Shown: positions 4,235 to 48,042 of the stretch, one piece after another
Numbering within the stretch: position 1 is the first letter of the stretch
Layout of the letters: each line of letters begins with the position of its first letter
Source of the DNA: Candidatus Taylorbacteria bacterium RIFCSPLOWO2_01_FULL_48_100
GTDB lineage: Bacteria > Patescibacteriota > Minisyncoccia > Phycocordibacterales > UBA10002
Length of the DNA: 64,000 nt
Assembly: GCA_001821135.1 (NCBI GenBank)
Contig: MHSA01000012.1
Span: forward strand, 6,341 to 70,340
Direction: 5' to 3'
The notes under the pieces: generated by a model
Database searches by the model: none
Told to the model about the DNA's origin: nothing
The model's input: only the letters and a program-made list of their open reading frames with translations
Program-made: the position numbers and the translations under genes

Positions 4235-4999
4235 TTGAATATAATTATGCAACCAACTTCATTAACAGAAGAAACTATAAAACACCAATACACACTTCTT
4301 TGTGCCTCGCATGAAAAGTTTCTGAAAAAGTTTGGTGTCAAGTTGCCAAAATTACAAGATACAGAAGGAAATTTTACGAAAGATGCGCTTGTGTTGGTGT
4401 ATCTTTCGCTTGGGTATCCAAAAACAAAGCCCGTCTCAAAAACAGAACTCACACATTTCATACGAAGTTTTTATCCCGATACACCAGATGTACAGCAAGC
4501 AAGGCATCTTGGTGCGCAGAGTGGCTGGTGGATTGTCGCGGGCGGTCGCGACAATATTGTCGCTAGTTTGCGTCGCGGGTGGTATCAACTGCATACTCTG
4601 GAAAAGCCATACCCATCTTTTCACCTAGGTCACCGCATTACAGAAACCGCGAATTGGGCTTTACTAAAAAAACAATATGGTTTTCGGTGCGCAACTTGCG
4701 GTTCAGAAGAAGGTGAGCCGCATCTCCACTGGCCAGCTACAAAAACAAAAATACAAATAGCCCATAAAGATCCTAATAAACCATTAGTTGCTGGTAATAT
4801 CATTCCACAATGCCAAAAATGCAACAGAGCAGATAGAAATAGGTGGGTGTATGACGACAAAGGAAGAGTTATTAAATTAGCAGACGCCAATTTTGTGAGA
4901 AACTTTGATACAATGGTAAGGTGGAAAATATATAAAATACTCTGTAGGGAATTTCGTGATAAAAATCCACACAAAAATGAACGAGAAATTTTTGAATAA
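4235..4999 (+). CDS. HNH-family restriction endonuclease (putative Type II R subunit)
   Basis: C-terminal HNH motif (CATCG...IAHKDPNK...NIIPQCQKCN). AT-rich relative to flanks. Overlaps the downstream methyltransferase gene. Confidence 0.55.
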   Translation: MNIIMQPTSLTEETIKHQYTLLCASHEKFLKKFGVKLPKLQDTEGNFTKDALVLVYLSLGYPKTKPVSKTELTHFIRSFYPDTPDVQQARHLGAQSGWWIVAGGRDNIVASLRRGWYQLHTLEKPYPSFHLGHRITETANWALLKKQYGFRCATCGSEEGEPHLHWPATKTKIQIAHKDPNKPLVAGNIIPQCQKCNRADRNRWVYDDKGRVIKLADANFVRNFDTMVRWKIYKILCREFRDKNPHKNEREIFE

Positions 5000-5960
5000 A
5001 ATTGTAACAGGTGACGCCCTTAAACTCCTTAATGACATTGAGGATGGTTCCATTGACTTGGTTTTGACCGACCCGCCTTATTTCTTAGATAAACTGGACA
5101 ATGAATGGAATCAACAAAAGGTTTCGCTTCGTCTCAAAAGTCAGTTGGTGGTAAAATCGCTTCCAGCCGGGATGAAGTTTGACAGAGAACAAGGAAAACG
5201 GTTTTACGAGTGGTACAGTTTGGTATCCAGTCAGTTATTTCGTGTGTTAAAGCCTGGAGGTTTTTTCTTTTCCTTTTCAAGCCCTCGTCTGTATCACCGC
5301 ATGGCTTCCGCAGTTGATGATGCCGGTTTTGAAGTCCGTGATATGTTTCTTTGGCTCTATACACAAAATCAAATGAAAGCGATGGGGTTGGCGCATTTTA
5401 TTGATAAACTTAGAGTGTCCTCTGCAGAAAAAGACGTCTTAAAAGAAGAACTACGCGGTTGGAAGACTCCGCAAGTCAAGTCGTGTTTTGAACCGATTGT
5501 CATGGCGCAAAAACCAACCGATGGAACATATCTCTCAAATATCCAAAAGCACCATGTAGGATTAGTCAATACAAATATACGAATTGGAGACGGGATGTTT
5601 CCGTCAAATGTCAGTATAACGGAGCCAATTCATAAAGTGCTTGACCGTGCGTTTCTTTTACCGAAACCGTCGCAAGAAGAGCGAGGTGTGGATAATATCC
5701 ATGAGACCGTTAAACCACTTGTTCTATGTCAGTACATCATTGCTCTTACTGCGTTTGCAAAAGATGCTGTTGTGCTTGACCCGTTTGTGGGGAGTGGAAC
5801 TACGGCATTGGCGGCAGATCGACTTGGCAAGCAGTTTATCGGACTCGATATAAATAAATCGTATGTTGAGATCGCGCGTCGACGTCTGAAGAAAAAAGAA
5901 ATAGTATCATCATTCGCTTCGTTTATTCCAATTACACGACAACCGCAATTACTTGCTTAG
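4956..5960 (+). CDS. beta-class DNA amino-methyltransferase (N6-adenine or N4-cytosine)
   Basis: Motif IV (SIDLVLTDPPY) lies near the N-terminus and motif I (VLDPFVGSGTTALAA) near the C-terminus. Overlaps the upstream REase gene by 23-44 nt; an alternative start is at 4977. Confidence 0.8.
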   Translation: MIKIHTKMNEKFLNKIVTGDALKLLNDIEDGSIDLVLTDPPYFLDKLDNEWNQQKVSLRLKSQLVVKSLPAGMKFDREQGKRFYEWYSLVSSQLFRVLKPGGFFFSFSSPRLYHRMASAVDDAGFEVRDMFLWLYTQNQMKAMGLAHFIDKLRVSSAEKDVLKEELRGWKTPQVKSCFEPIVMAQKPTDGTYLSNIQKHHVGLVNTNIRIGDGMFPSNVSITEPIHKVLDRAFLLPKPSQEERGVDNIHETVKPLVLCQYIIALTAFAKDAVVLDPFVGSGTTALAADRLGKQFIGLDINKSYVEIARRRLKKKEIVSSFASFIPITRQPQLLA

Positions 5961-5970
5961 TAAATGCAAA

Positions 5971-6498
5971 ATGTTCTCCAACCCATCACAAATTATTTCT
6001 CAATTAGACCTGCAATCCAGCGCGCGGGTGGCGGATATTGGCGCGGGGAGCGGGGCGTATGCACTTGCGGCGGCGAAAGCGGTCGGGGAGCATGGCAAGG
6101 TTTTTGCGGTAGAAGTGCAAAAGGAGCTTTTGTCGCGCATAGAAAAAGAAGCACGCTCAAAAGGCATTCATAATATAGAAACAATGTGGGGGGATGCGGA
6201 GAGCGCGGGCGGAACGCATCTTGCGGACGGCGCGTGTAATGCGGTAATTATTGCAAATGTGCTTTTTCAAGCGTCCGATAAACAGGCGCTCGCGCGCGAA
6301 GCCGCGCGGATTCTGGAACCCCGTGGTCGCGCGCTTGTGGTGGATTGGTCGGGCTCGTTTGGCGGCGCGGGTCCTGCGCCCGCCGCCGTGGTTTCCAAGC
6401 AAAAAGCGCAAGAGATTTTTGAAAGCGCCGGGTTTGTATTGGAACGCGCTGTGGATGCGGGCGCAAACCACTATGGTATAATTTTTAGGAAAAAATAA
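5971..6498 (+). CDS. class I SAM-dependent methyltransferase
   Basis: Motif I (VADIGAGSGAYAL). GC-rich, unlike the preceding R-M pair. Start taken at the internal Met (MFSNPS). Confidence 0.65.
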   Translation: MFSNPSQIISQLDLQSSARVADIGAGSGAYALAAAKAVGEHGKVFAVEVQKELLSRIEKEARSKGIHNIETMWGDAESAGGTHLADGACNAVIIANVLFQASDKQALAREAARILEPRGRALVVDWSGSFGGAGPAPAAVVSKQKAQEIFESAGFVLERAVDAGANHYGIIFRKK

Positions 6499-6609
6499 TA
6501 CCAATCTGCGAATTATACCAATGATACAAATGTCTACGAATAAGAAATGAATTTTATTAGTAGTCATTAGTAGAATTGGTATGTATTAGTATATTGGTAT
6601 GTCCATCTT

Positions 6610-7872
6610 ATGCGTCCATTCCAAATAATACTTCTCGCCGTTTTTGTGATAGCCGCCATTGCGGGGCTGGTCGCCTTTTCGCTTTTTAAGGGCACGCCCC
6701 CCGCAGGGGGGCTTGCGGAACTTGAAGTATGGGGTTCATTTCCGTCATCCGCGTTTTCAAGTGCGACGGCGGACTTGTCTGGAGATGAGTTTAAAATTAC
6801 ATACAAAGAAATCTCCGCGGCTCGGTTTGAGCAAGAACTCATAGAGGCGCTCGCGGCTGGAAGAGGGCCAGATGCGATTATTTTGCCGTCAGAACTTGTA
6901 GTGCGGCATAGCGACAAAATCGTACTGATTCCATTGGAGACACTCTCGGAACGGCAATTTAAAGACGCTTTTGTGGAAGCGGAAGAGGCGTTTTGGACGC
7001 CAGCCGGCGCGCTCGCGATTTCGCTCGCCGTGGACCCTATTGTTATGTACTGGAATCGCGACCGGTTGAGTGCGGGAGGAGTCGCGCGGCCCCCTCGCTA
7101 TTGGGATGAGGTTCTTACGGCAGTTCCGAAGTTGACACTTCGCAATCGGCTCGGGCAAATCCAATCTGCAGGCATTTCTCTCGGCGAGTTTCGCAACATT
7201 ACGAATGCGAAAGAAATTATCTCCGCGCTCTTTTTCCAAAGCGGCGGCAAGCTCATTTCGCGCGCACCGGAAGGATACGCAGTATCGCTTGAGGATTGGG
7301 CGAATGCCGGAAGCGCACTCGGCTTTTTCACTGAGTTTGCAAATCCTGTGAAGTCGCTATACACATGGAATCGCGGTCTGCCACAATCACGCGACATGTT
7401 TGCATCTGGCGACCTTGCGCTGTATTTAGGCTTCGCGTCCGAATATGCGGGGCTTCGCGAAAAGAATCCGCATTTAAATATGTCCGTCGCGCCATTCCCG
7501 CAAACGCGCGATTCTAAACTCACGGTAACATTCGGCAAAGCGTGGGGGCTTGCCGCATTAAAGACGGGAAGAAATCCAGCTGGTGCGATGCGGCTTGGTT
7601 TCGCACTTGCGGATTCCACGCGAATAACAAGATTGGCGGAAGCGCTCGGCACGGTGCCGCCACTTCGCGCACTTCTGGAACGCAAAGCAGACAGTGCCGC
7701 GAAGTCGGTATTTTACGAGGCGGCTTTGCAGGCGCGTAGTTTCCTAGACCCAAACCCTACGGAAACGGCAAAATTATTCCAATCGGTTGTAGAAAATATC
7801 ACCGGCGGCAGAGGGCAGGTAGCGAGCGGGGTAGGCGACTTGCGGAGTGGATTAGAAAGATTACTAAAATAA
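6610..7872 (+). CDS. membrane-anchored extracellular solute-binding-protein-like protein
   Basis: N-terminal TM helix followed by a ~390 aa soluble domain. Weak resemblance to family-1 substrate-binding proteins. No permease genes adjacent. Confidence 0.4.
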   Translation: MRPFQIILLAVFVIAAIAGLVAFSLFKGTPPAGGLAELEVWGSFPSSAFSSATADLSGDEFKITYKEISAARFEQELIEALAAGRGPDAIILPSELVVRHSDKIVLIPLETLSERQFKDAFVEAEEAFWTPAGALAISLAVDPIVMYWNRDRLSAGGVARPPRYWDEVLTAVPKLTLRNRLGQIQSAGISLGEFRNITNAKEIISALFFQSGGKLISRAPEGYAVSLEDWANAGSALGFFTEFANPVKSLYTWNRGLPQSRDMFASGDLALYLGFASEYAGLREKNPHLNMSVAPFPQTRDSKLTVTFGKAWGLAALKTGRNPAGAMRLGFALADSTRITRLAEALGTVPPLRALLERKADSAAKSVFYEAALQARSFLDPNPTETAKLFQSVVENITGGRGQVASGVGDLRSGLERLLK

Positions 7873-7874
7873 AT

Positions 7875-8315
7875 ATGGAGCAAAACACATTTTCAAAATG
7901 TCTGGAGCGAATGGTCGCATTGCAGCGACCCGAGCGTTACCGAGGACTTTTGCAAAATGTGTTTTGCGGAATGTTTATATATGTTGTTCTTGTTGCGCCA
8001 CTTTTTGCTCACGCCGCTCCGATTGTCCCGTGCGGAAACCCAGGTCAAGAGCCGTGCGGCTTCAATCACTTCCTCATCGGCATCAACAATGTAATTAACT
8101 TTTTGATTATGATTGGCGGCTCCATCGCCGCGATTGTGTTTGCATGGGCGGGAATTCTGATTTTGACTGCCGGCGCGAACGAAAGTCAAGTAACTAAAGC
8201 AAAAGGAATGTTCTGGGCAGTGCTAAAGGGTTTCGCGCTGATGCTCGCCGCGTGGATTTTGGTGAAAATGGTGCTGGTTGGGCTTGGGGTTCCGGATGCG
8301 TTCTCATTGCTTTGA
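7875..8315 (+). CDS. VirB2/TrbC-like pilin family small membrane protein (paralog 1 of 6)
   Basis: Signal-like hydrophobic segment, then the shared core (LTAGANESQVTKAKG...) and a second TM helix. This architecture is shared by all six paralogs. Confidence 0.55.
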   Translation: MEQNTFSKCLERMVALQRPERYRGLLQNVFCGMFIYVVLVAPLFAHAAPIVPCGNPGQEPCGFNHFLIGINNVINFLIMIGGSIAAIVFAWAGILILTAGANESQVTKAKGMFWAVLKGFALMLAAWILVKMVLVGLGVPDAFSLL

Positions 8316-8319
8316 TAGT

Positions 8320-8742
8320 ATGGAGAAAGAGACACCAGATGTTGATAGGCGGCAAACATCTAGTGTCTTGGTGTGGTACAATAACACTCATATGCAAAAA
8401 GTGTTTTGGGTAATAATTGGATTTTTGCTTTCCGCAGGGCAAACATACGCACTGCATACTGGCGGTGGTTTGCCGCATCTTGATAACCCGCTTGGACCTA
8501 CTACCAATACATTTGAAGCGCTTGCGGCGAAAATACTTGTGATTGTTTCCGATATAGGCGGCGTGGTGGCGGTATTCTTTATTATTTACGCAGGGTTTTT
8601 GTTTGTAACTGCTGGCGGAAACGAAGATAAGCATAAGAGCGCGAAAAAGGCGATTTTGTATGCAGTCATCGGCACCGCAATCCTCCTCGGTGCGCAAGCA
8701 CTCGCAAAGATTTTAGAGGCAACGATAAACTCGTTGAAATAA
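8320..8742 (+). CDS. VirB2/TrbC-like pilin family small membrane protein (paralog 2)
   Basis: Shared core VTAGGNEDKHKSAKKAILYAVIGTAILLG. Start codon uncertain (8278, 8320 or 8392). Confidence 0.55.
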   Translation: MEKETPDVDRRQTSSVLVWYNNTHMQKVFWVIIGFLLSAGQTYALHTGGGLPHLDNPLGPTTNTFEALAAKILVIVSDIGGVVAVFFIIYAGFLFVTAGGNEDKHKSAKKAILYAVIGTAILLGAQALAKILEATINSLK

Positions 8743-8745
8743 TAT

Positions 8746-9066
8746 ATGAAAAAAATATACGCAACATTCTTAATACTCTCACCGCTTTCTGTTTTTGCCG
8801 CGCCAGCCGATTTCAAGGGACTGGTTAATTTGGCGCTGGACAACATCAATGTTGCGCTTTTTGCGCTCCTAATTCTCGCGTGGTTTGTTGTATTTGCGAA
8901 AATAGCCGGTTATATAGGGGCGGGTGTGGGAGGAGATGAAAAAAAGATGAGTGCTTTCAAACAAACGGCACTTTTTGGTGTTCTTGGTATTGCGGCATTA
9001 TTAGTGTATTGGGGCGCGGCAAAAATTATTTGTTTAAGTTTGCTTGGCCCAGGCAATTGCAATTAA
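8746..9066 (+). CDS. VirB2/TrbC-like pilin family small membrane protein (paralog 3)
   Basis: Signal peptide MKKIYATFLILSPLSVFAAP. Core IGAGVGGDEKKMSAF plus second TM. Confidence 0.55.
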   Translation: MKKIYATFLILSPLSVFAAPADFKGLVNLALDNINVALFALLILAWFVVFAKIAGYIGAGVGGDEKKMSAFKQTALFGVLGIAALLVYWGAAKIICLSLLGPGNCN

Positions 9067-9070
9067 GCAT

Positions 9071-9487
9071 ATGAAAAAATTCATCTTTTCGCTTTTTTTC
9101 GCATCTCCTTTCTTAGTGTTTGCACAGACGCTTCGCGATCAACTTTTGCTCAACAACCCTGCGGCGCGTACTCCGCTTGGTAACATTGTACTTATACTTC
9201 TAGACCTCTTAAGTTTGGTTAGTTTTATTGTAGGCACTCTGGCACTCATCTGGTTCTTCTGGGGCATCATCCAGTATGTCTTAAAAGCCGACAATGAAGA
9301 AAAACAAACGGCAGCGCGCAGTTATATGATTTACGCAGTTATTGGAATGTTCGTTATGTTTTCTATATGGGGGCTTGTAAACTTGGTGCGCAATACCTTT
9401 TTCTTTCCCGGTAGTCCTTTTATTCGCTTAAATCCAGGTGATATTCCAATAGTGCCTCGGCTTCCTGAGGGGAATACAGGAACATAG
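9071..9487 (+). CDS. VirB2/TrbC-like pilin family small membrane protein (paralog 4)
   Basis: Signal peptide MKKFIFSLFFASPFLVFA. Core ADNEEKQTAARSYMIYAVIGMFVMF. Confidence 0.55.
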   Translation: MKKFIFSLFFASPFLVFAQTLRDQLLLNNPAARTPLGNIVLILLDLLSLVSFIVGTLALIWFFWGIIQYVLKADNEEKQTAARSYMIYAVIGMFVMFSIWGLVNLVRNTFFFPGSPFIRLNPGDIPIVPRLPEGNTGT

Positions 9488-9603
9488 TTTGTCTACACCC
9501 CGCCATTTGCGCAGGTTGGATTAGAGAATTGAATTATGAACCTCGATTGTTATTATGAAAAACAACACACTGAAAGAAAAGATACAGCGATTTTGAACGA
9601 CCC

Positions 9604-9834
9604 GTGTTGATTATAAGGGTTTTTAATAAAGATTTTGTGCTCGTCGTGCCCATTTCAAGCAAGGAAAAGGAAGGACGATATTATTACGCTTTCAGAAATT
9701 CAGCCAATAAGTGTAATGTGGTTGTGCTGTCTCAGATTAAGTCAATCAGCAGTAAAAGGTTGGTGAGGAAGGTGGGGGAGATTGGAGCAACTGATTTTTT
9801 TGCAATCGCCATTCGGTTAAAAGATTTGATATAA
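9604..9834 (+). pseudogene. MazF/PemK-family toxin remnant (C-terminal ~75 aa; N-terminal ~30 aa missing, no ATG)
   Basis: ERPVLIIRVFNKDFVLVVPISS...VVLSQIKSISSKRLVRKVGEIGATDFFAIAIRLKDLI matches the MazF C-terminal half. The frame is open back only to a stop at 9571, with no ATG. No antitoxin gene is recognisable. Confidence 0.5.
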
Positions 9835-9840
9835 CAAACG

Positions 9841-9886
9841 GTGCCCCCTTGCGGGGGCACCTCGAAGCTTCCTTGCGGAAGTATAA
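9841..9886 (+). terminator. two adjacent GC hairpins (ggtgccccc-ttgc-gggggcacc and cttcc-ttgc-ggaag)
   Basis: Perfect palindromes read directly from the sequence, with no strong T-run. Probable terminator or RNA structure. Confidence 0.35.
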
Positions 9887-10035
9887 TGTATCGTTCAGTA
9901 TAGCAAAAGCAATATATAAGTCAAACGGAGTAATCCACACCCCGCCCCTTGCGCTGTTTTTAGATGTTGTATAATAACAAGCGGTCTTAAATAACAAAGG
10001 TCTTTATTATTTATTAGTTTATTAAGGAATTTACA

Positions 10036-10392
10036 ATGAAAAAAGTTCTTGCAGGTTTGGGGTTATATGCGATTCCGTTTTTAGCGTTGGCGCAGGGGAC
10101 TGGAACGCTTGTTAGTGCTGTGAATACAATTGGGAAAATAGTAAATCTCATTATTCCGATTGTTGGTGCAGTTCTACTCGTCTTTTTCTTTTATGGTGTA
10201 ATTGGATATGTTAATGCGGGCGGAGAAGACGAAAAACGAACCGCGGCGCGCAACACTATGATTTATGCAGTTATCGGTATGTTCGTTGCATTTTCTATCT
10301 TCGGATTGATACAACTCTTACAACGGTCATTTGGCGTTGGTGATACAGCGGGGTTAACTCTACCCGGTCAAAGCGGATTCTTTAACTTCTAA
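10036..10392 (+). CDS. VirB2/TrbC-like pilin family small membrane protein (paralog 5)
   Basis: RBS AAGGAATTTACAATG. Signal peptide. Core NAGGEDEKRTAARNTMIYAVIGMFVAF. Confidence 0.6.
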   Translation: MKKVLAGLGLYAIPFLALAQGTGTLVSAVNTIGKIVNLIIPIVGAVLLVFFFYGVIGYVNAGGEDEKRTAARNTMIYAVIGMFVAFSIFGLIQLLQRSFGVGDTAGLTLPGQSGFFNF

Positions 10393-10398
10393 TAGGTA

Positions 10399-10644
10399 AT
10401 GGGACCAGTTAACACCTTCATCAACAAAATCGGGGAGAACATTCTGAACCCCCTGATTTACCTTATGTTCGGGGTTGCATCCCTCACATTCGCGTGGGGG
10501 GTGTATGTGTTTCTCGCGAATCTAGACAATGAAGAAAAACGCAAAGAAGGCGGGTGGGCAATGCTCTGGGGTGTGCTCGGGATGGCGATAATGCTTGGAG
10601 CGAAGGGGATTGTAGCGGTTATAAAAGAGACGATTGGGGTGTGA
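10399..10644 (+). CDS. VirB2/TrbC-like pilin family small membrane protein (paralog 6, short)
   Basis: Core NLDNEEKRKEGGWAMLWGVLGMAIMLG. 81 aa. Confidence 0.5.
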   Translation: MGPVNTFINKIGENILNPLIYLMFGVASLTFAWGVYVFLANLDNEEKRKEGGWAMLWGVLGMAIMLGAKGIVAVIKETIGV

Positions 10645-10652
10645 GAATAAAG

Positions 10653-10765
10653 ACACCCCTCCGCCTCGCGGACTCGGCACCTCCCCTTAGGTTAAGGGCA
10701 GGATTGGAAAAAGAAAAACCCTCTCGCCCTTTTCATAAGGGGGAGAGGGTAGGGTGAGGGGGTGT
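10653..10765. repeat. GC-rich palindromic MITE-like repeat, copy 1 (modules A then B), with a terminator-like hairpin at 10791-10824
   Basis: Ends acacccctc...gagggggtgt are inverted. Near-identical to the copy at 14632-14744. Confidence 0.7.
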
Positions 10766-10830
10766 TTGAAACAGAAAATAAGAAAAAAATCACCCCCTCA
10801 CTTGTCCGACAAGTGAGGGGGTGTGTGTTT

Positions 10831-11466
10831 TCATTCCATCCGTCCGCTGATTTTCAGCGGAAAGTTGGTGAGCGAGAGGAATCGAAGGACATTCGGCTTC
10901 CCGATGTCGGGGTCGAGTCCCGGGCCGATGATGTGGATGACCCCATCCGCATTCACCGCCAGCACGCCTTCGCGCTTCGTTCCGTCGTCTGCGAACGCAT
11001 CCATCTGCGAACGCCTGCCGTAGAGGTTCAGCGGCTCGCTCCACTGCTCAATCGGCGTGTTGATTGTGCCGATTGGAGCGAGGATGTTGATTTGTTTCTG
11101 GTCGCGAGCAACAGGCGGTCCCGCTTGCGTGGTAATTCCTGCCTGCGCTGGCGCTTGTTGCACCTGCGGCGGCACATAGGTGTAATCGCCTTTCCAGAAC
11201 ATTTTCGGCCCGATGATGAAGATGCAGAGCACGGCGGTGAAGGCAAGAAGTGCAGCGAGTTTCGCAAACGCAATTCCCGTTTCCCACACTTTTTTCCAAT
11301 CGCGTTTTTTTGCGGTTACGGCAGGGGCGGGTGTCGGAGCTCCTCCAGGCACTGGCGTTGTCGGGTTTTTCTTAAACCACCCCGAGATTTTCGTCCAATT
11401 TCCAATCAGAAGAGCGATAATCGCCAACCCAACCGCGCTCCAGATTATGATTGTCAGCCATTTCAT
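10831..11466 (-). CDS. hypothetical membrane protein with Pro-rich linker
   Basis: Good RBS (AGGAAAAATCTTATG). Two TM helices. Terminator hairpin downstream. Overlapping plus-strand ORFs are judged spurious. Confidence 0.5.
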   Translation of the reverse strand: MKWLTIIIWSAVGLAIIALLIGNWTKISGWFKKNPTTPVPGGAPTPAPAVTAKKRDWKKVWETGIAFAKLAALLAFTAVLCIFIIGPKMFWKGDYTYVPPQVQQAPAQAGITTQAGPPVARDQKQINILAPIGTINTPIEQWSEPLNLYGRRSQMDAFADDGTKREGVLAVNADGVIHIIGPGLDPDIGKPNVLRFLSLTNFPLKISGRME

Positions 11467-14291: not shown

Positions 14292-14630
14292 ATGGCTGAA
14301 TATATTGAATCAGTAAGGCGGGATATTATGAGGCGCGTGTATGTCGTATTTTTTGTGCGAAAAGTGGTGAAGCCGTTTGTCATTAAAATGGGCTCGGTCG
14401 CCGCGCTTGCTGTTGCGGTCGCCGCGCTCGTATCCGTGCAAAATGTGCTCGGCAATATGCCGTCTCCTGCTGAGTTTGTATCCTTCGGCAAGTTTATATT
14501 CTCGGCATTTGCAAATACGGAACTCTCCGTGCAGGCGCTCTCGCTCGCGGTTGCTGTGCTCGCCGCATTTGCCGTCCGCGACCTCGCGCGCGTTTCGCGA
14601 CTTATCGGAGTACGACGGGTTGCAATGTAA
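14292..14630 (+). CDS. hypothetical membrane protein (possible anti-sigma partner)
   Basis: Hydrophobic 112 aa ORF directly downstream of the ECF sigma gene. No SD sequence. The anti-sigma role is inferred only from position. Confidence 0.35.
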   Translation: MAEYIESVRRDIMRRVYVVFFVRKVVKPFVIKMGSVAALAVAVAALVSVQNVLGNMPSPAEFVSFGKFIFSAFANTELSVQALSLAVAVLAAFAVRDLARVSRLIGVRRVAM

Positions 14631-14631
14631 T

Positions 14632-14744
14632 ACACCCCTCCGCCTCGCGGACTCGGCACCTCCCCTTAGGTTAAGGGCAGGATTGGAAAAAGAAAAACCC
14701 TCTCGCCCTTTTCATAAGGGGGAGAGGGCAGGGTGAGGGGGTGT
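14632..14744. repeat. GC-rich palindromic MITE-like repeat, copy 2
   Basis: Differs from copy 1 by a single mismatch. Lies between convergent genes and abuts the polX stop codon. Confidence 0.7.
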
Positions 14745-17078: not shown

Positions 17079-17342
17079 ATGATGTTATTCGTGAAAAAAG
17101 ACATTCACCCGAAGTATTATCCGGAAGCGAAGGTGTCGTGTTCGTGCGGCGCGGTTTTTGCCGTGGGTTCTACCAAGCCGGAATTGCGCGTTGAAATATG
17201 CGGGAACTGCCATCCGTTCTACACAGGCACCGAAAAAATTGTTGACACGGCGGGCCGCGTTGAGCGTTTTAAGTCAAAAATTGCAAAGGCCGCTAGCTTA
17301 CCGCGCGCGGTGAAAAAGGCGGCGAAGAAAAATAAAAAATAA
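17079..17342 (+). CDS. rpmE: 50S ribosomal protein L31
   Basis: KKDIHPKYY...CSCG...[10 protein letters not shown] matches L31. Confidence 0.9.
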
Positions 17343-17350
17343 GACAAAAA

Positions 17351-17445
17351 TCCTCTCGCCCTTTTCCAAAGTGGGAGAGGGTAGGGTGAGGGGGTGTAAG
17401 AAAAAAACACCCCTCCCTTTCCCTCCCCTTAGGTTAAGGGCAGGG
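17351..17445. repeat. GC-rich MITE-like repeat, copy 3 (module order B then A, permuted)
   Basis: cctctcgcccttttccaaagtgggagagggtagggtgagggggtgt, then acacccctccc...ccccttaggttaagggcaggg. Confidence 0.65.
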
Positions 17446-22176: not shown

Positions 22177-23439
22177 ATGTTGGATATAAAATTCATTCGG
22201 GAAAACAAAGAACTCATCGCCGAGGCGGCGCGGAAGAAGCACATCGCGTTCAAGGTGGATGAGCTGATTACCGCAGACGATGAGCGCCGCGCGGTGCTTA
22301 AAATCGTTGAAGACAAACGCGCGGAGCAGAATCGCAAAAGCGAGCAGATTACGCGCGCGCACGACGACAATAAGCGCCAGGCGTTTGTGGAGGAGATGCG
22401 CGCGCTCAAAGTCGGTCTTCAAGAGGAGGAAGAACGGCTGAAAAAGACGACCCAAAAATGGCAGTCGCTAATGCTTCTAGTCCCAAATGTTCCAGATATT
22501 TCGGTGCCGGAAGGGGTTGGCGAGGAAGACAATAAAGAAATGCGGACATGGGGAGAAAAGCCGGAGTTCACATTTGAGCCAAAGAGCCATATTGAACTTA
22601 TGAAGGCGCTTGATATGGCGGATTTTGAACGCGGCGCGGCTGTGTCGGGCTTTCGCGGATATTTCTTGAAGAATGACGGTGCGCTTTTGTCGCTTGCACT
22701 ATGGCGGCTGTGTATGGATTTCTTTACAAAGAAAGATTTTTCGCCAATACTTGCGCCGTCCTTGGTTCGGCGCGAATCACTTCTCGGAACCGGGTATTTG
22801 CCTCAAGGAGAAGACGATTTATACAAAACGCAAGACGGCGACTATCTTGCAGGCACCGCGGAAGTGCCGGTTATGTCGTATTTTGCGGACACAATTTTGA
22901 GTGAGGAAGAATTGCCGAAAAAAATAATTGCGTTCTCTCCGTGTTTTCGGCGTGAGGCGGGGAGCCACGGAAAAGATACAAAAGGGCTGATGCGTGTGCA
23001 TGAGTTTTTCAAGTGCGAGCAAGTGGTGCTTTGCGAAGCGAGCCATCAGGCGTCTGTTGCTTTACACGAAGAGATAAATCGCAACGAGGAGGAATTTATG
23101 GAAACTCTCGGTATTCCCTATCGTACAGTTATCAACTGTGGCGCTGACCTTGGTCTTGGGCAAGTAAAAAAATACGACATTGAATTATGGGTGCCGTCGG
23201 AAAAACGGTATCGGGAAATAAGCTCCGCCTCATACTTCCATGATTTTCAGACACGACGGCTTAATATTCGCTACAAAAACAAAGATGATAAAGCACAATT
23301 TGCCCATTCACTGAATTGCACTGCCGCGCCAACGCCCCGTCTTTTGATTTCCATCCTTGAAAACAACCAGCGCGCGGACGGGAGCATTGCGGTTCCTAAA
23401 GTGCTGGTGCCGTATTTTGGAAAAGAAGAAATAAGATAA
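22177..23439 (+). CDS. serS: serine--tRNA ligase
   Basis: N-terminal coiled coil (MLDIKFIREN) and class II core motifs. Start taken at the internal Met. Confidence 0.9.
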   Translation: MLDIKFIRENKELIAEAARKKHIAFKVDELITADDERRAVLKIVEDKRAEQNRKSEQITRAHDDNKRQAFVEEMRALKVGLQEEEERLKKTTQKWQSLMLLVPNVPDISVPEGVGEEDNKEMRTWGEKPEFTFEPKSHIELMKALDMADFERGAAVSGFRGYFLKNDGALLSLALWRLCMDFFTKKDFSPILAPSLVRRESLLGTGYLPQGEDDLYKTQDGDYLAGTAEVPVMSYFADTILSEEELPKKIIAFSPCFRREAGSHGKDTKGLMRVHEFFKCEQVVLCEASHQASVALHEEINRNEEEFMETLGIPYRTVINCGADLGLGQVKKYDIELWVPSEKRYREISSASYFHDFQTRRLNIRYKNKDDKAQFAHSLNCTAAPTPRLLISILENNQRADGSIAVPKVLVPYFGKEEIR

Positions 23440-23441
23440 CA

Positions 23442-23632
23442 CTCGGAATGCTGCTTTTGCGGAACCGGAAAATTTCCCCTGCGAGGAAATTTTCCTTATC
23501 CGCTCGCCTCGCTCTTCCTCGCAGATTCGGAATCCATGCCCGCTCGGCTCCTCGCCCGCCCGTACCGAAACGGTACATTTCGGGCGGGCCGTTCCGCAAC
23601 CTGTCTGCCGACAGGCAGAAAGCACATTGCTT
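23442..23632. repeat. TIR-bounded structured element, copy 1 (long form with two extra nested hairpins)
   Basis: Shares ~110 nt at near identity with 43881-44015. Outer 20 bp stem ggaatgctgcttttgcggaac/gttccgcaa..agcacattgc. Begins 3 nt after the serS stop. Confidence 0.7.
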
Positions 23633-43874: not shown

Positions 43875-43880
43875 AAGACG

Positions 43881-44015
43881 CTCGGAATGCTGCTTTTGCA
43901 GAACCGGAAGATTTCCCCTGCGAGGAAATCTTCCTTATCCGCTCGCCTCGCTCTTCCTCGCAGACTCGGAATCCATGCCCGCTCGGCTCCTCGCCGTTCC
44001 GCAAAAGCACATTCC
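43881..44015. repeat. TIR-bounded structured element, copy 2 (short form)
   Basis: Near-identical to 23442-23556 plus the shared 3' arm. Outer stem ggaatgctgcttttgcagaac/gttccgcaaaagcacattcc. Confidence 0.7.
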
Positions 44016-44096
44016 TCACTCTCGTTATTTATTTCAACACTATTCCAATTAAACGCTATAGCAAGTAACTGGAATAGTTTACTCAATTCAACATAC

Positions 44097-44140
44097 ACTA
44101 TCTCTAGCAATCGCCAAAGATAGTGTATCCAATCATTTTG
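44097..44140. repeat. hairpin family X, copy 2
   Basis: tacactatctctagcaatcgccaaagatagtgta + attttgc. Confidence 0.5.
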
Positions 44141-44200
44141 CCTGCCCGCCGACGAGGAGGGCAAAATGTCTGTATATCCCGACATCCTCTTTGGCACCAG

Positions 44201-44232
44201 ATGTTGATGGTTTCAAACATCTGGTGCGTCTC
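44201..44232. repeat. hairpin family Y, copy 3
   Basis: caccagatgttgatggtttcaaacatctggtg. Confidence 0.5.
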
Positions 44233-44270
44233 GGGACATAGTTTATATTTTGTGATAACATATATTTAGA

Positions 44271-44566
44271 GCCGAGGTAGCTCAGTTGGTAGAGCGTCCG
44301 CCTGAAATCTTCGGGCCTTTCCGCCGCAAGGCGGATAGAAAAGCGGGTGAAATCGGGGAACATCCAATGACAAACAATCGGACAATCCCGAGCCAAGCTC
44401 GCCGAATAGGCGAGAAGGTGTAGAGACTATTCCTTTGGGAAGTACCCTCTTTTTAACAAAAGATGGGGAAGCGCCCGCCCCCTACTCCATCAAAGATGGA
44501 CGGGTGATGATATAGTCCAAATTATGGAAGAGCGGTAGGTCGGCAGTTCGATTCTGCCCCTCGGCA
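44271..44566 (+). tRNA. tRNA-Phe(GAA) interrupted by a group I intron in the anticodon loop
   Basis: 5' exon 44271-44303 (acceptor gccgagg, D-arm tagctcagttggtagagc, anticodon-stem 5' strand tccgc, loop cu|). 3' exon 44527-44566 (gaaga, anticodon-stem 3' strand gcggt, variable loop, T-arm ggcag-ttcgatt-ctgcc, acceptor cctcggc-a). Confidence 0.7.
44304..44526 (+). other. group I intron (~223 nt) within tRNA-Phe
   Basis: Contains group I core-like elements: P-like aaaagcgggtgaaa, Q-like aatcccgagc, R-like tagagactat, S-like gatatagtcc. The last 5' exon base is U, the intron ends in G, and an internal guide GGGC can pair with the exon end GCCU. Confidence 0.6.
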
Positions 44567-44600
44567 TTTGTAAAATTAGGAATTTTTTATAAAAACCACT

Positions 44601-44789
44601 ATGGCAAAAATTAACTGGGGTCAGGCGTCGGTTGACGGGCTAAATAAGACGGTGTTGGAGGAAAAGAAGAGATTGGAGTTGGAGCAAGAAAAAAGAAAAT
44701 TACATCTCTCGGCATCAAAATCTGATATTGAAACAGTCAGAAAAGTAATGAACGCGCTCGGTGTTAGTGTGGATGATTTGGTGAAGTAA
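44601..44789 (+). CDS. small hypothetical protein (coiled-coil, possibly DNA-binding)
   Basis: 62 aa, AT-rich. First gene of a tightly packed three-gene island. Confidence 0.4.
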   Translation: MAKINWGQASVDGLNKTVLEEKKRLELEQEKRKLHLSASKSDIETVRKVMNALGVSVDDLVK

Positions 44790-44793
44790 AAAT

Positions 44794-45339
44794 ATGCTTA
44801 ACAAAATTGATTTTGAAAATATAGTTCGGGATTTCTTATTTACATATAGGAAATTTCTATTCTACGCTTATTTGCACAAAAGGGTAAATCACGACGCATA
44901 CGAAGCAAACAGGATAACTTGGGATACCTTGCTTATTAGCTTAGAATCAGATGCATTACTTGGATTAGCAAAAATACTTTATGACAGGGAAAAAAGCTTG
45001 GGAAGGCCATTCAACGACGGCTCGGGAAAAACATTTAATAACGAAGAATTTAATAACGAAGAATTAAATGAGATTCGCAAAAAAATACTAAACCTGAGAC
45101 ATGATTACCTAGCTCACCAAAATTTATCGAAGATGCGTAATATGGATTCACTTTTGAAGGAAAACCGCTTGACAGGTACAGATGGCGTGAAAATGATCGA
45201 TGCGCTTAAAAGTAGGTTCATTCAATATGAAAAAAATCTTAAGCTCGATGTCAATGTGCAAAAACTATTTACCGAAAGCCAAAATAATGCGCTTAACGAC
45301 CTTGATAGTTGGTTGAAATCTTTTAAGACAGCGCTGTAA
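44794..45339 (+). CDS. hypothetical protein with HEPN-like R-x5-H motif (Abi-like candidate)
   Basis: LRHDYLAH fits the Rx4-6H HEPN signature. 181 aa, AT-rich. Confidence 0.4.
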   Translation: MLNKIDFENIVRDFLFTYRKFLFYAYLHKRVNHDAYEANRITWDTLLISLESDALLGLAKILYDREKSLGRPFNDGSGKTFNNEEFNNEELNEIRKKILNLRHDYLAHQNLSKMRNMDSLLKENRLTGTDGVKMIDALKSRFIQYEKNLKLDVNVQKLFTESQNNALNDLDSWLKSFKTAL

Positions 45340-45365
45340 GTAGAGACAATTTTAGAAATAGATTT

Positions 45366-47819
45366 ATGGCGAAAAAAATATCCAAATCTGGAAATAACTT
45401 TCTAACTGAGCGCGAGGGTCAGATTAAATTTTTCGACGATTTCAAGATAAGTGTCGATGTCGAACTTACTCATAATACCGATGGTGTATATAAGGGTACA
45501 TTATTCGAGTTCAAACTCACCGTATCAGACATTAACAAAGCACTTTTTCAAGCCATAAAATATCTCAGTCACAGACGAATTAGAGGTGAACCAGTGCCAG
45601 CGCAGATCTTACTCGTAGCACTCAACGAAGAGAATGCATATTTATTTGATTCTGGCGATTTCCTTACAGAGATTGAAAAGGTTTATGCTGGTGCTGCTAG
45701 TAAAAATAATGCTGATTTTAGCACTAAGATTAAACCGGAAAAAATTGATTACGGTGAGGCATTTGGCCTGCAACATATCAAAAAAATCCTAAACAAAGAA
45801 CACTTCACTAAAATAAATATTGATGTTTTTGATGTTGTCGGTTGGGCAAATCGATTTTACCGAGAAAACCCATCTGCTAGTAAAATCGAACTTTTCAAGG
45901 AGCTGCGTGCACCAAAACATTTTGCAACTTACATTTATCCATGGACAGGCGATGAAAAAGATTTCAAGTACATCATGGACCTTCTCAATGACACGCAACA
46001 CAAAAAAGAACTCGGTGCCTTTTATACACCACCAGCGTATTGTCGCAAAGCCACGGAATTAGTCCGAAAAGCTATTAGGCAAATACCGGTTGGCCACGAT
46101 TACATTATTCTTGATCGATGCGCCGGTACGGGCAATTTGGAAGAATTCTTAACCGATAAAGCGGTAAAAGATATAACTATCGGTGAGTTAAGCCGCTACA
46201 TCGATAACACTCTTAAAATAAAATATCTGCAGGACAAGGCTGATATTATTGCAATATTTTATAACAAGCGAAATTTTAACGAAATCACCGTTGGAGAATT
46301 GGAGAATCACAAAACCGGTCTCTCACTTTACGATTATATTTTTGACGATGAGCTATCTCATACCATCGTCAATACCTACGAGTTAAAAGAATGGATAGTG
46401 TTGAACTGGCGCATAGGAAATCGTGTCAAGCTCATAATTCCACCGCCACAGGAGATTGATAATACTGAATCGTTAGTCGATGGTGGCGATGCACTAAGTG
46501 TGCAATTTGTTACTGGCCAGAAGTCTATCGGTATGACGGATGAATATAATGATAGCATCGATATGCTTTCGGAGTGTGTCAAAAACAAAAAGACAAACAT
46601 TATTTTATATGAAAATCCGCCCTATCGAGATACGACATCTAATACGCATTTAGCAAGTTCTGGGAAAGGCGCGAATTTTGTTAAGGATGAAATGGCATCT
46701 GAAAAGAGGTGGGGTGCTACGCAAAACGATATTGCCAACCAATTTATTTGGTCAGGATGGAAGCATTATCTCACAAAGCCAGATGATTATTTTGTACTTT
46801 TCAGCCCCATAAAGTATTGGAAATCACTTGGTCTTGGTGAAAAGAAATTCATTGACGGCTTTTTGTTTAACCGCCAATTTTTTCATGCTGGTCCTAGTGC
46901 TATCAGTTGTATTTTATGGAACAATACTAACGACAGTCGTGAGTCGTTAACACTTAAAGCTTTTGATATAGACACGAATAACACACCAGAACAAGAAGAC
47001 GACACAATCGTTTATTTCAAAGATATAACAGTCAACAAAGTACATGAATCGTTGAAGCCATATTTTGATAAACGAAGATTTGATGACGATGTCGATATCT
47101 CCGTTGTTGTCGAACTATCTGGTCTTGAATCGTCTAAAAAGATTACAAAAAAACCAATCTACAACAAAAATATAGTCGGCCATATAAGAATCACAAGCTT
47201 CAATCTTGATCCGATAAGCATGTCATTGACTACAGTGGTAACACATAACGGTCTAACGAAGACAATTGGTTTTTATTTGCGTTCTGACAATTTTATTGAA
47301 AAATTACCTCTATTTGCAGCCAAACTGTATCCGCAAAAAAATTGGTATGAGCGCGACACATACTTTACTACAGCCGATGGTGGTGACCGTTATCTAAAAG
47401 ACAAAGATTTTTTGAAAGCATGTTTTATATTTGCTTGTATTAGTCAGCGCAACCATTGTCGGAGCTTCGATGGTAGCGATGGTCGATTTTACAAGAACGA
47501 GCTTTGTTTTGATAAAGGCACGGTGGCAAGTAGCAAACTAAAAAGCTACAAATTTACTAATCAGGAACTGGATTTGATAGATACTTTTACAGATGTGCTT
47601 ACAAAAGCAAAATCTACTAAAGAGTACAACTCAAAGTACACATATGGAACATATCAAATCGACGAAGAACTTAACACTCGCTATAAAAATGATAACGATG
47701 AATGGATCTACGATTATCCGGAACTCAACACGGCGATTAACAGTTTAAAGACGAAATTAGCTAAGTATTATGAGATCGCTATTCAGCCAAAGCTGTTTGA
47801 ATATGAACTACTAAAATAG
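45366..47819 (+). CDS. fused PD-(D/E)xK nuclease / gamma-class N6-adenine DNA methyltransferase / specificity protein (Type IIG/IIL MmeI-like R-M enzyme, or a BREX PglX-like enzyme)
   Basis: N-terminus D...EFK (VDVELTHNTDGVYKGTLFEFK). Methyltransferase motif X (GAFYTPPAY), motif I (ILDRCAGTGNL) and motif IV (ILYENPPYRD). Long C-terminal region. AT-rich. Confidence 0.55.
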   Translation: MAKKISKSGNNFLTEREGQIKFFDDFKISVDVELTHNTDGVYKGTLFEFKLTVSDINKALFQAIKYLSHRRIRGEPVPAQILLVALNEENAYLFDSGDFLTEIEKVYAGAASKNNADFSTKIKPEKIDYGEAFGLQHIKKILNKEHFTKINIDVFDVVGWANRFYRENPSASKIELFKELRAPKHFATYIYPWTGDEKDFKYIMDLLNDTQHKKELGAFYTPPAYCRKATELVRKAIRQIPVGHDYIILDRCAGTGNLEEFLTDKAVKDITIGELSRYIDNTLKIKYLQDKADIIAIFYNKRNFNEITVGELENHKTGLSLYDYIFDDELSHTIVNTYELKEWIVLNWRIGNRVKLIIPPPQEIDNTESLVDGGDALSVQFVTGQKSIGMTDEYNDSIDMLSECVKNKKTNIILYENPPYRDTTSNTHLASSGKGANFVKDEMASEKRWGATQNDIANQFIWSGWKHYLTKPDDYFVLFSPIKYWKSLGLGEKKFIDGFLFNRQFFHAGPSAISCILWNNTNDSRESLTLKAFDIDTNNTPEQEDDTIVYFKDITVNKVHESLKPYFDKRRFDDDVDISVVVELSGLESSKKITKKPIYNKNIVGHIRITSFNLDPISMSLTTVVTHNGLTKTIGFYLRSDNFIEKLPLFAAKLYPQKNWYERDTYFTTADGGDRYLKDKDFLKACFIFACISQRNHCRSFDGSDGRFYKNELCFDKGTVASSKLKSYKFTNQELDLIDTFTDVLTKAKSTKEYNSKYTYGTYQIDEELNTRYKNDNDEWIYDYPELNTAINSLKTKLAKYYEIAIQPKLFEYELLK

Positions 47820-47907
47820 TATAGAAAATCCCACTCTCTTTCAGAAAGTTATCAGATGTTATGCAAAACCCACAATCGGGCAAAAGGTAATCGTTAAAAA
47901 ATTATAA

Positions 47908-47948
47908 CACACACCCGATGTTTGAAGCCCATCAACATCGGGTGTTGT
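47908..47948. repeat. hairpin family Y, copy 4
   Basis: cacccgatgtt-tgaagcccatc-aacatcgggtg; loop sequence identical to copy 1. Confidence 0.55.
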
Positions 47949-47977
47949 GGAATGGATGAATTGCCTAGTTTGATTTC

Positions 47978-48042
47978 ACCTTCAGTTTTGTCTGCCTGTC
48001 CTTGTCTATTTTCGGGAGCTTGATGATGAGGTCATGTTTTTT
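47978..48042. repeat. duplicated fragment of the hsp20 3' end (last ~20 codons plus stop)
   Basis: The reverse complement encodes IIKLPKIDKDRQTKLKVKSN*, matching the hsp20 C-terminus at 48164-48230. The nucleotide repeat is tgtctattttcgggagctt(g/t)atgatgagg. Confidence 0.6.

Follow-up and report, generated by a model that had tools for sequence, protein, structure and literature searches.

A chromosomal array of six predicted VirB2-like pilin paralogs in Candidatus Taylorbacteria

Arrays of genes for VirB2-like pilins have been catalogued in Patescibacteria: a survey from 2025 (Quinonero-Coronel et al., PMC12102498) lists 441 of them, which consist of 2-11 genes that are ~25% identical, and in 1135 of 1948 assemblies virB4 had pilin genes in its vicinity. 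In Candidatus Southlakia epibionticum ML1, a series of six pilin genes within the type IV secretion system (T4SS) cluster SEML1_0006-0019 is essential (Wang et al. 2023, PMC10633639; PMC12857230). On the basis of the Southlakia case, VirB2-like arrays belong to the small number of surface systems specific to Patescibacteria that genetics has shown to be essential for epibiotic growth. According to reviews, a pilus on a T4SS of Patescibacteria has never been seen and is only a possibility (PMC12857230).

Comparable proteins are known from other bacteria. The VirB2/TrbC pilins (PF04956; VirB2 of Agrobacterium, TrbC of RP4, TraM of pKM101, and TraA of F) are small, possess a cleavable leader, and consist of two hydrophobic helices with a short charged loop. 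Several divergent VirB2-type genes in tandem occur as the trwL copies of the Bartonella Trw system and as the virB2 paralogs of Anaplasma phagocytophilum (via PMC12102498). These arrays lie in or beside T4SS operons of diderm pathogens; their members are thought to diversify the exposed surface and have been interpreted as variants (cited in PMC12102498). The Mbov_0395 family (NF045849) of Mycoplasma ICEs comprises single-copy, ICE-borne two-helix proteins (Mbov_0395 has 80 aa) of a monoderm conjugation system.

The Taylorbacteria locus and described arrays

The analysed stretch of DNA, a window of 64 kb, is 100% identical to assembly GCA_001820885.1 (Candidatus Taylorbacteria); its source is a CPR bacterium, in agreement with the link to CPR families drawn in the initial annotation. 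Six other contigs are 99.95-100% identical to the window. The array is invariant among these near-identical strains, which therefore give no information on population-level variation. Six plus-strand genes for small membrane proteins make up the array (7875-10644), and all of the ORFs that had been listed for it are present at their positions. It is embedded in a conserved housekeeping block with the order gyrA, methyltransferase, SBP, array, SPFH, sigma factor, and PolX. The features are:

6610..7872, plus strand: SBP-like gene for a predicted membrane-anchored solute-binding protein (Pfam SBP_bac_1/8 matches)
7875..8315, plus strand: P1, predicted VirB2-like hairpin protein, 146 aa (PF18895 25.2 bits; hhalign 96.2%)
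8392..8742, plus strand: P2, predicted VirB2-like hairpin protein, 116 aa (PF18895 41.3 bits; TrbC 26.3 bits)
8746..9066, plus strand: P3, the most divergent paralog, 106 aa (hhalign 97.3%, E 2.5e-11 against the P4/P5 profile)
9071..9487, plus strand: P4, predicted VirB2-like hairpin protein, 138 aa (PF18895 42.5 bits)
9490..9834, plus strand: PemK/MazF-type toxin pseudogene between P4 and P5 (intact ORF only 9604-9834)
9933..10035, plus strand: promoter-like block and 5' leader of P5 (DNA alignment of five species)
10036..10392, plus strand: P5, predicted VirB2-like hairpin protein, 118 aa (PF18895 47.0 bits, the best Pfam match)
10399..10644, plus strand: P6, predicted leaderless hairpin protein, 81 aa (PF18895 28.9 bits)
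10791..10823, no strand assigned: hairpin located where P6 (plus) and a 211-aa gene (minus) converge; its stem has 15 bp, and T-runs are present on both strands

For P1, alternative starts are possible at 7914 or 7971. The start of P2 (MQKVFW..) was set by ortholog conservation, the ORF being open from 8278; the likely start of P4 is 9071, with an ORF open from 9044.

With the arrays catalogued in Patescibacteria, the locus shares the family PF18895, the tandem layout (here split by one non-pilin gene), an identity of ~25%, and the phylum; with the Southlakia array it also shares the number of six members. In contrast to these systems, it is not located beside virB4 or any other T4SS gene. It belongs to the Paceibacteria, in which arrays are less abundant than in Microgenomatia and Saccharimonadia (PMC12102498). 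Given the 441 catalogued arrays, in a survey that includes GCA_001820885.1, and the essential six-pilin array of Southlakia, this kind of array is already known. The finding is correct, but it is not new and adds no new kind of system. Neither PMC12102498 nor PMC10633639 mentions per-paralog orthology, a leaderless sixth member, or a variable outer segment of P1.

In the window and the 10 kb upstream of it, no gene for a T4SS/T4P ATPase, VirB4, VirB6, VirD4, or another T4SS component was found. Likewise, the called genes in the flanks of the relatives contain no T4SS components, and neither in the window nor in these flanks do virB3 or virB4 adjoin the six genes. Table S1 of PMC12102498 lists GCA_001820885.1 under Paceibacteria with the entry 'Presence of VirB4: Yes'. 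As no T4SS gene lies nearby, the link to such a system is based on homology and on this published table. An 817-aa protein devoid of a Pfam match (45366-47819) was assessed as a possible hidden component of a T4SS, but this role was rejected, because no support for it was found.

Family assignment and protein architecture

P2, P4, P5, and P6 pass the gathering score of the Pfam family PF18895 (T4SS_pilin; 26.6 bits); P1 is 1.4 bits short of it, and P3 has no Pfam match. The P1 ortholog of L019, a more distant relative, passes with 36.1 bits. A comparison of profiles by means of hhalign matched the P3 orthologs to the P4/P5 profile and linked the P1 orthologs to the other paralogs (E 2.7e-9). 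Local alignments of the paralogs gave identity values of 21-44%, and 13 of the 15 pairs scored 5.9-25.6 SD above composition-preserving shuffles. The weakest pairs, P1-P3 and P3-P6, were only 2.2 and 2.4 SD above the shuffles. P4 is the closest paralog of P5 (44% identity, z-score 25.6). A local HMM applied to the 64 kb window returned exactly these six ORFs and no others. The initial annotation had regarded the six consecutive plus-strand genes as paralogs, and the PF18895, hhalign, and shuffle results bear this out: to judge from sequence, they are homologous, divergent VirB2-like T4SS pilin paralogs. In PMC12102498, an array is defined by at least two PF18895/PF04956 genes (E < 0.001, >50% of the profile covered), which are in tandem or split by one non-pilin gene. 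Five of the six genes qualify here, and the PemK fragment is the only interruption.

All six proteins are below the gathering threshold of TrbC (PF04956; 27.9 bits). The best score is that of P2 (E 8.9e-6), P6 reached 14.8 bits, and the others did not match. Partial matches with scores below the cutoff (40 bits) were obtained with the NCBIfam model NF045849 for P2 (32.0 bits), P5 (28.1 bits), P4 (27.1 bits), and P6 (20.7 bits). The PF18895 matches and the sub-threshold TrbC scores of P2 and P6 agree with the earlier assignment to a VirB2/TrbC-type, pilin-like family that is expanded in CPR bacteria. None of the six matched the T4P model N_methyl (PF07963) at E <= 1 or contains a motif of the type G-F-T-L-x-E. 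With the solved VirB2/TraA structures, neither a profile search of PDB sequences nor Foldseek gave a significant match. The only match of interest in the profile search was TraM of pKM101 (E 0.33), and it covers the leader region. For the P5 model, Foldseek returned from the PDB only generic helical hairpins of chemoreceptors and pore-forming toxins (E >= 0.35); this search is uninformative, because P5 is a two-helix protein.

According to hydropathy, all six proteins consist of two hydrophobic helices and a short polar loop. The predicted layout is an outward N-terminal segment, TM helix 1, a short charged loop (G-G-[ND]-E-[ED]-K..), TM helix 2, and an outward C-terminal tail. By inspection, P1-P5 have a Lys-/Arg-rich n-region and an h-region, followed by the sites AHA, TYA, VFA, VFA, and ALA, respectively; they would thus carry Sec-type signal peptides with AXA-like sites at their ends, whereas P6 appears to lack such a signal. 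An in-frame stop codon is located 6 nt upstream of the P6 start, and the protein begins at the hairpin itself. The single architecture that had been proposed for all members therefore holds for the hairpin, but not for the signal/anchor helix, which is missing in P6. Similarly, the proposed conserved core A-G-G-(N/D)-E-(D/E)-K is present as a loop motif in register, but it is only approximate, as the six paralogs agree in a single alignment column only (a Gly). The AF2 model of P5 comprises a signal helix (residues 3-20) and the hairpin helices 25-61 and 65-99; block-mean pLDDT values are 82-92 over residues 31-90. Further individual traits are the predicted signal peptide of P1 (..LFAHA/AP), whose removal would leave a mature N-terminus with the short Cys-Cys loop PCGNPGQEPCG, two conserved C-terminal Cys residues in P3, and a conserved Pro-rich C-terminal tail in P4. 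Elsewhere, the family contains single polypeptides of 2-17 fused hairpins; for one of these, located in another array, the ORF was confirmed to be continuous.

The Taylorbacteria proteins share with the VirB2/TrbC pilins the small size, the leader (predicted for P1-P5), the two helices with their charged loop, and a weak sequence similarity (P2). They differ in their sub-threshold scores, the monoderm host, the lack of an adjacent virB3/virB4, and the presence of six different genes instead of one. Cyclisation, acetylation, and a pilus are not evidenced for the Taylorbacteria proteins. With the Mbov_0395 family they have in common the two-helix design and a monoderm setting; as stated above, that family is single-copy and ICE-borne, and all Taylorbacteria scores are below its cutoff.

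Conservation of the array and competing explanations

In species with a GyrA identity of 84-87%, 1:1 orthologs exist for every one of the paralogs. In the ortholog matrix, identity values are 62-91% on the diagonal and 25-51% off the diagonal; P2, P3, and P4 are 87%, 83%, and 91% identical to their L007 orthologs. The highest ortholog conservation is that of P6 (identity of 81-90% in close relatives and 53% in L019), and in the alignment none of its orthologs has a signal peptide. All contigs spanning the whole array (L007, L013, and L015) contain the six genes in the same order, and L016 and L010/L020, whose contigs are incomplete, agree with it. A scan of the genome collection with a narrow alignment matched only four close relatives.

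As dS was above 1 and thus saturated, only relative dN values were used, not dN/dS. For P2, P3, P4, and P6, dN is 0.076-0.10, to be compared with 0.095 for GyrA and 0.09 for PolX. The values of P1 (0.30), the fastest member, and P5 (0.23) correspond to a rate which is 2.5-3 times that of the other members. Variation is concentrated in the N-terminal segment of P1, which is predicted to face outward, and in the ends of P5. In the P1 ortholog alignment, the loop between two conserved Cys residues varies in length. Across species, the outer segment ranges from a 5-residue Cys-Cys loop to an extension of ~180 aa; the L020 ortholog, which has 302 aa, carries a Pro-rich N-terminal extension. In one lineage P5 is duplicated (extra copy in L010/L009). 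Within the window array, neither recent duplication nor gene conversion is apparent, the closest pair being 44% identical. By these comparisons the six genes are an old, fixed set.

We consider it likely that the locus is a chromosomal VirB2-like array whose products are used by a T4SS and act as non-redundant subunits of one structure, not as alternative variants. The fixed orthologs, the unequal rates, the leaderless P6, and the variable P1 segment are more readily reconciled with a set of co-operating subunits than with interchangeable variants; the tight gene spacing and the fused polypeptides of 2-17 hairpins also count towards paralogs acting together. The Taylorbacteria locus is a clean comparative case: the order of the six genes is fixed and conserved across species, their rates are unequal, P6 lacks a leader, and P1 has a variable outer segment. 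This speaks for paralogs which act jointly as separate parts; the putative function is assigned by homology. From the homology with VirB2/TrbC and the genetics of Southlakia we infer that the six proteins may be stored in the membrane, would be used by a monoderm-type T4SS encoded elsewhere in the genome, and might build a surface filament or a conduit towards the host cell. P5, together with P4, is a candidate for the bulk subunit, and P1 may be a display subunit, because its outer N-terminal segment varies in length; P6 would contribute a highly conserved leaderless component. Several points count against the pilus reading: T4SS genes are absent from the window and the 10 kb upstream, the solved VirB2/TraA structures gave no significant match, all TrbC scores are sub-threshold, and, according to reviews, a pilus has never been seen on a T4SS of Patescibacteria. 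In addition, the multi-hairpin fusions can hardly be accommodated in the helical polymer of classical VirB2, unless cleavage occurs.

A stricter version of the subunit model is tentative and doubtful. Here, the paralogs would be obligate, non-interchangeable blocks of one heteromeric VirB2-type surface structure in a monoderm, with a P4/P5-type bulk, P1 with its variable N-terminal extension as display or tip subunit, the leaderless P6 as base or initiator, and the fused polypeptides as covalent versions of this assembly. If true, it would represent the first filament or conduit of the VirB2 class that is heteropolymeric, and its organisation would be closer to that of major and minor T4P pilins than to any known conjugative pilus.

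That the proteins are not pilus subunits and act independently of any T4SS is, in our estimate, unlikely: the hairpins would then form a membrane-embedded hetero-oligomer, e.g. a channel or scaffold, which acts alone or with the presumably co-transcribed SBP. Such an assembly would agree with the lack of T4SS genes in the window and 10 kb upstream and of a specific VirB2 match in the structural searches, and fused proteins with 6-17 hairpins would be accommodated more easily in a membrane bundle than in a helical polymer. Moreover, in all lineages examined (L007, L013, L016, L019, and L020), the SBP gene is the immediate upstream neighbour of the array: in the window its stop is located 2 nt before the P1 start, and in L020 start and stop codons overlap at the junction of SBP gene and array. 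However, the array of L017, which is unrelated, does not show this link. The sequence homology, which is to T4SS_pilin and, weakly, to the TrbC and ICE pilin-like models, also argues against a T4SS-independent function, as do the frequent proximity of pilin genes to virB4 in the surveyed assemblies and their position inside the essential Southlakia cluster.

A repertoire of interchangeable pilin variants, which diversify fast to match hosts or to evade recognition, appears quite unlikely. This idea is modelled on the Bartonella Trw and Anaplasma VirB2 paralogs, and versatility in host range has also been put forward in PMC12102498. It would be in accord with the low identity of the paralogs, whose outward-facing ends differ most, with the length variation of the P1 outer segment, and with the P5 duplication. 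In contrast to those variants, the Taylorbacteria copies are anciently fixed and most of them are under housekeeping-level constraint: related species have 1:1 orthologs in the same order, four of the six genes evolve as slowly as GyrA and PolX, and signs of recent duplication or gene conversion are missing in the window array. The absence of a signal peptide from P6 in every lineage points to a distinct role. The invariance of the array among the near-identical strains speaks in the same direction, but is little informative at 99.95-100% identity. The initial annotation had read the tandem diversification as a hint of surface-appendage variation; taken to mean ongoing variation, this view is not supported, as the paralogs are old and individually conserved, and only P1 and P5 evolve faster than GyrA.

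That the likeness of the six ORFs is mere shared hydrophobicity of unrelated small membrane proteins, as the single invariant column, the missing Pfam match of P3, and the sub-threshold score of P1 might suggest, is refuted for all practical purposes by the PF18895 matches, shuffle z-scores of up to 25.6, profile-profile probabilities of 96-97% (E 1e-9 to 1e-11), the common loop motif in register, and the tandem order conserved across species.

Transcription units, toxin remnant, and array boundary

The gaps along SBP-P1-P2-P3-P4 are 2, 76, 3, and 4 nt, and P6 starts 6 nt after the P5 stop. This spacing suggests two transcription units, SBP-P1-P2-P3-P4 and P5-P6. P5 has its own conserved promoter-like block with TTGCGC (9949-9954) and TATAAT (9970-9975), and before its ATG the only Shine-Dalgarno-like site of the array (AAGGA). 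In the five-species alignment TATAAT is invariant and the leader is conserved. A consensus scan did not list the block, because the spacer is 15 nt long.

A toxin remnant had been noted between paralogs 4 and 5, and a PemK match confirms it. The ORF 9604-9834 matches positions 30-108 of the 109 positions of the PemK_toxin profile (PF02452) with 35.6 bits; if an in-frame TGA is read through, the match grows to positions 19-108 and 43.1 bits, and a second in-frame TGA is located further upstream. The intact ORF does not contain a full-length domain, and no antitoxin gene adjoins it; by its sequence, the PemK/MazF element is classified as a pseudogene. It is part of a species-specific insertion of ~430 bp between P4 and the conserved block upstream of P5; this insertion is absent in L007, L013, L015, and L016.

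An Rfam search of 6400-11200 gave nothing at or near any threshold. Downstream of P6, the hairpin with T-runs on both strands looks like a bidirectional terminator that closes the array.

Family membership and known counterparts

Contig MHRG01000010.1 of GCA_001820885.1, a genome of Candidatus Taylorbacteria (Paceibacteria, CPR) from the Rifle aquifer, matches the window with 100% identity. Here the array sits in a housekeeping neighbourhood, in which gyrA, a small SAM methyltransferase gene and the gene of a membrane-anchored SBP_bac_1/8 protein (SBP) precede it. On the other side come, convergent to the array, the genes of a 211-aa membrane protein and of an SPFH-like one; beyond these lie those of a sigma factor and of PolX.

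Genes of the array and the hairpin downstream
7875-8315, plus strand: P1, 146 aa
8392-8742, plus strand: P2, 116 aa; start set by ortholog conservation, ORF open from 8278
8746-9066, plus strand: P3, 106 aa
9071-9487, plus strand: P4, 138 aa; start set by ortholog conservation, ORF open from 9044
10036-10392, plus strand: P5, 118 aa
10399-10644, plus strand: P6, 81 aa
10791-10823: hairpin downstream of P6, 15-bp stem, T-runs on both strands

The initial annotation had proposed six divergent pilin-like paralogs, and this array is real: the six plus-strand ORFs at 7875-10644 are homologous. In Pfam, P2 (41.3), P4 (42.5), P5 (47.0) and P6 (28.9) exceed the gathering score of T4SS_pilin (PF18895), which is 26.6 bits; P1 stays just under it (25.2) and P3 has no PF18895 match. 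P2 also comes near the TrbC/VirB2 threshold (PF04956) but remains below it (26.3 versus 27.9), and the NCBIfam model for the Mycoplasma ICE 'pilin-like conjugal transfer protein' gave sub-threshold matches to four of the six proteins. P1 and P3 are tied to the other four in several ways. Compared profile to profile with P4/P5, the ortholog alignment of P3 gives 97.3% (E 2.5e-11) and that of P1 96.2% (E 2.7e-9). One P1 ortholog passes PF18895 with 36.1 bits. Of the 15 local alignments among the six, 13 lie 5.9-25.6 SD over shuffles, and the other two, P1-P3 and P3-P6, reach only 2.2 and 2.4 SD. A local HMM, run over the 64 kb window, found P1-P6 and no further ORF.

The VirB2/TrbC-type classification was likewise correct, and pilins of this kind are already known from Patescibacteria. 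Quinonero-Coronel et al. 2025 (PMC12102498) searched 3,035 genomes of this group, including GCA_001820885.1, with PF18895 and PF04956; VirB2-like pilins were reported in 1,948 VirB4-containing assemblies and lay near virB4 in 1,135 of these. In their Table S1, GCA_001820885.1 stands under Paceibacteria, and VirB4 is given as present. Wang et al. 2023 (PMC10633639) found the pilin series of the Southlakia T4SS cluster to be essential; a 2025 review (PMC12857230) counts six divergent VirB2-like pilins there and treats a pilus on a monoderm T4SS as an open possibility. As the phenomenon itself has been described, our additions are comparative details only.

Conservation and evolutionary rates of the array

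Recurrence of the gyrA-methyltransferase-SBP-array block was scored wherever a related contig extends upstream of the array; L015 and L010 start inside it. The block occurs in L007 (GCA_007376285.1), L013 and L016, with a GyrA identity to the window of 84-87%, and in L019 (71%). L020 has kept methyltransferase, SBP and array, the place of gyrA being taken by other genes. The 250-aa hypothetical gene and the N6/N4 DNA methyltransferase gene found at 4235-5960, between gyrA and the small methyltransferase gene, are missing at this position in L007, L013, L016 and L019; the pair looks like a species-specific insertion, and the methylase is possibly an orphan or derived from a restriction-modification system.

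The close relatives whose contigs span the whole array (L007, L013, L015) each possess six genes in the same order, and what is present on the incomplete contigs L016 and L010/L020 fits this arrangement. The identity matrix of window versus L007 is strongly diagonal, with 62-91% for orthologs and 25-51% for paralogs. The six genes are an ancient, fixed set, whose members evolve at unequal rates: as dS is saturated, only relative dN is meaningful, and the values of P2, P3, P4 and P6 (0.076-0.10) are the same as those of GyrA (0.095) and PolX (0.09), while P1 (0.30) and P5 (0.23) change 2.5-3 times faster. One-to-one orthologs in fixed order and a housekeeping-level dN in four of six genes counter the proposal that tandem diversification had created interchangeable surface variants.

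Some lineages deviate in detail. P1 is the extreme case of variability; in its orthologs, two conserved cysteines just behind the signal site enclose a loop whose length ranges from 5 to about 45 residues. The P1 ortholog of L020 comprises 302 aa and has a proline-rich N-terminal extension of about 180 aa. Between SBP and P1, L020 encodes an additional secreted protein of 722 aa without Pfam match, and these three genes are joined via overlapping start and stop codons; the stretch concerned is 6266-9339 of L020, compared with 7875-8315 in the window. P5 is duplicated in the L010/L020 lineage. The L019 array has five genes: P1, P2 and P6 are recognisable, and the two genes between them belong to the P3/P4/P5 group.

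Protein architecture, fused relatives and possible function

Of the architecture and core motif ascribed to all six proteins, the helical hairpin is common to all; P6 lacks an N-terminal signal or anchor helix, and the motif is approximate, with a single glycine invariant across the six. By inspection, P1-P5 begin with a basic n-region and a hydrophobic stretch, followed by the sites AHA, TYA, VFA, VFA and ALA, respectively. In the mature part, two hydrophobic helices, the first of them long, are joined by a charged loop (in P5, for example, NAGGEDEKRTAARN); a short segment precedes them at the N-terminus, and the tail behind them is variable. The AlphaFold2 model of P5, based on 24 aligned sequences, has its signal helix at 3-20 and the two helices of the hairpin at 25-61 and 65-99; across residues 31-90, block-mean pLDDT is 82-92. 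Comparison within the orthologous groups shows a nearly invariant hairpin core in each; residues differ mainly in the N-terminal segment, which faces outward, and in the C-terminal tail. P6 has no leader in any lineage and is the best conserved of the six.

The family is very large: with a profile of the six proteins, a search of a set of 1.84 billion gave 59,516 representatives of 50%-identity clusters that reach E <= 0.001, of which 7,577 reach E <= 1e-10. The top-scoring matches are single polypeptides with 2-17 hairpin units, among them P0035 (6), P0033 (8) and P0048 (17); examples of size are 552 aa for 6 units and 1775 aa for 17. Such fused PF18895 hairpins go unmentioned in the Patescibacteria T4SS papers cited here. 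P0035 is a continuous table-11 ORF (1777-3435 of L017, an unrelated locus) and lies inside another PF18895 gene array. When array members occur fused, this is classic evidence of physical co-operation between their separate counterparts.

From these sequence comparisons we favour distinct, co-operating subunits. The six proteins would be inserted Sec-dependently with both ends outside the cell, stored in the membrane, and extracted and assembled by a VirB4-type machinery encoded elsewhere; the assembly would be a filament or conduit directed at a host cell. P5 and P4 might provide the bulk, P1 a variable display subunit and P6 a conserved leaderless component. No VirB4, VirB6, VirD4 or type IV pilus ATPase gene was found in the 64 kb window or 10 kb upstream. 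A T4SS-independent membrane complex linked to the SBP, whose gene ends 2 nt before P1, is unlikely. Interchangeable variants of the antigenic type are slightly less probable still; both the pattern of conservation and the existence of fused relatives speak against them.

Gene spacing, insertions and repeats

Besides SBP-P1, gaps are short at P2-P3 (3 nt), P3-P4 (4 nt) and P5-P6 (6 nt). Upstream of P5, five species share a conserved block in which the TATAAT (9970-9975) is invariant and the leader is conserved too; taken together, tight spacing and this promoter-like block suggest an operon organisation.

The toxin remnant noticed between the fourth and fifth paralog is genuine. ORF 9604-9834 matches positions 30-108 of the 109 of the Pfam profile PemK_toxin; read back through an in-frame TGA, the match extends to 19-108 and scores 43.1 instead of 35.6 bits, and there is another in-frame TGA farther upstream, which makes the ORF a pseudogene. 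The pseudogene is part of an insertion of about 430 bp, and four related species have no insertion at this position. The more distant L019 has 3.3 kb of inserted DNA (6850-9982) that separates the fourth pilin gene from the P6-like one; on it lie a spermine-synthase-like gene, two genes of the MNT (NTP_transf_2) type and one for a HepT toxin. This part of the array has thus received toxin-antitoxin cargo more than once, and the spacer seems to collect it. The PemK-bearing insertion also contains a strong minus-strand promoter-like site (TTGACT-16-TATACT with TG, 10/12 matches, 9924-9897), followed by a 9-bp GC-rich hairpin (9861-9840) with a T-rich tail; 9840-9924 could encode a small RNA of about 50-60 nt just downstream of the PemK fragment, on the strand opposite to that of the fragment.

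A dispersed intergenic repeat, which contains a CCCTCTCGCCC...GGGGAGAGGG hairpin, occurs at 10650-10765 and 14629-14744 (116 nt each, 98% identical) and, as a partial copy, at 17341-17403. The first copy begins 6 nt past the P6 stop, and the first two flank the 4 kb block from SPFH to the sigma factor. The copies of a second direct repeat (118 nt, 96% identical) lie 20 kb apart at 23439-23556 and 43878-43995, the latter near tRNA-Gly/tRNA-Arg genes and the edge of a low-GC island (44000-48000; 0.375-0.39 versus about 0.49 elsewhere). This island encodes a 181-aa protein with a weak HEPN_AbiU2 match and an 817-aa protein without Pfam or NCBIfam match, and may represent horizontally acquired defence-type cargo.
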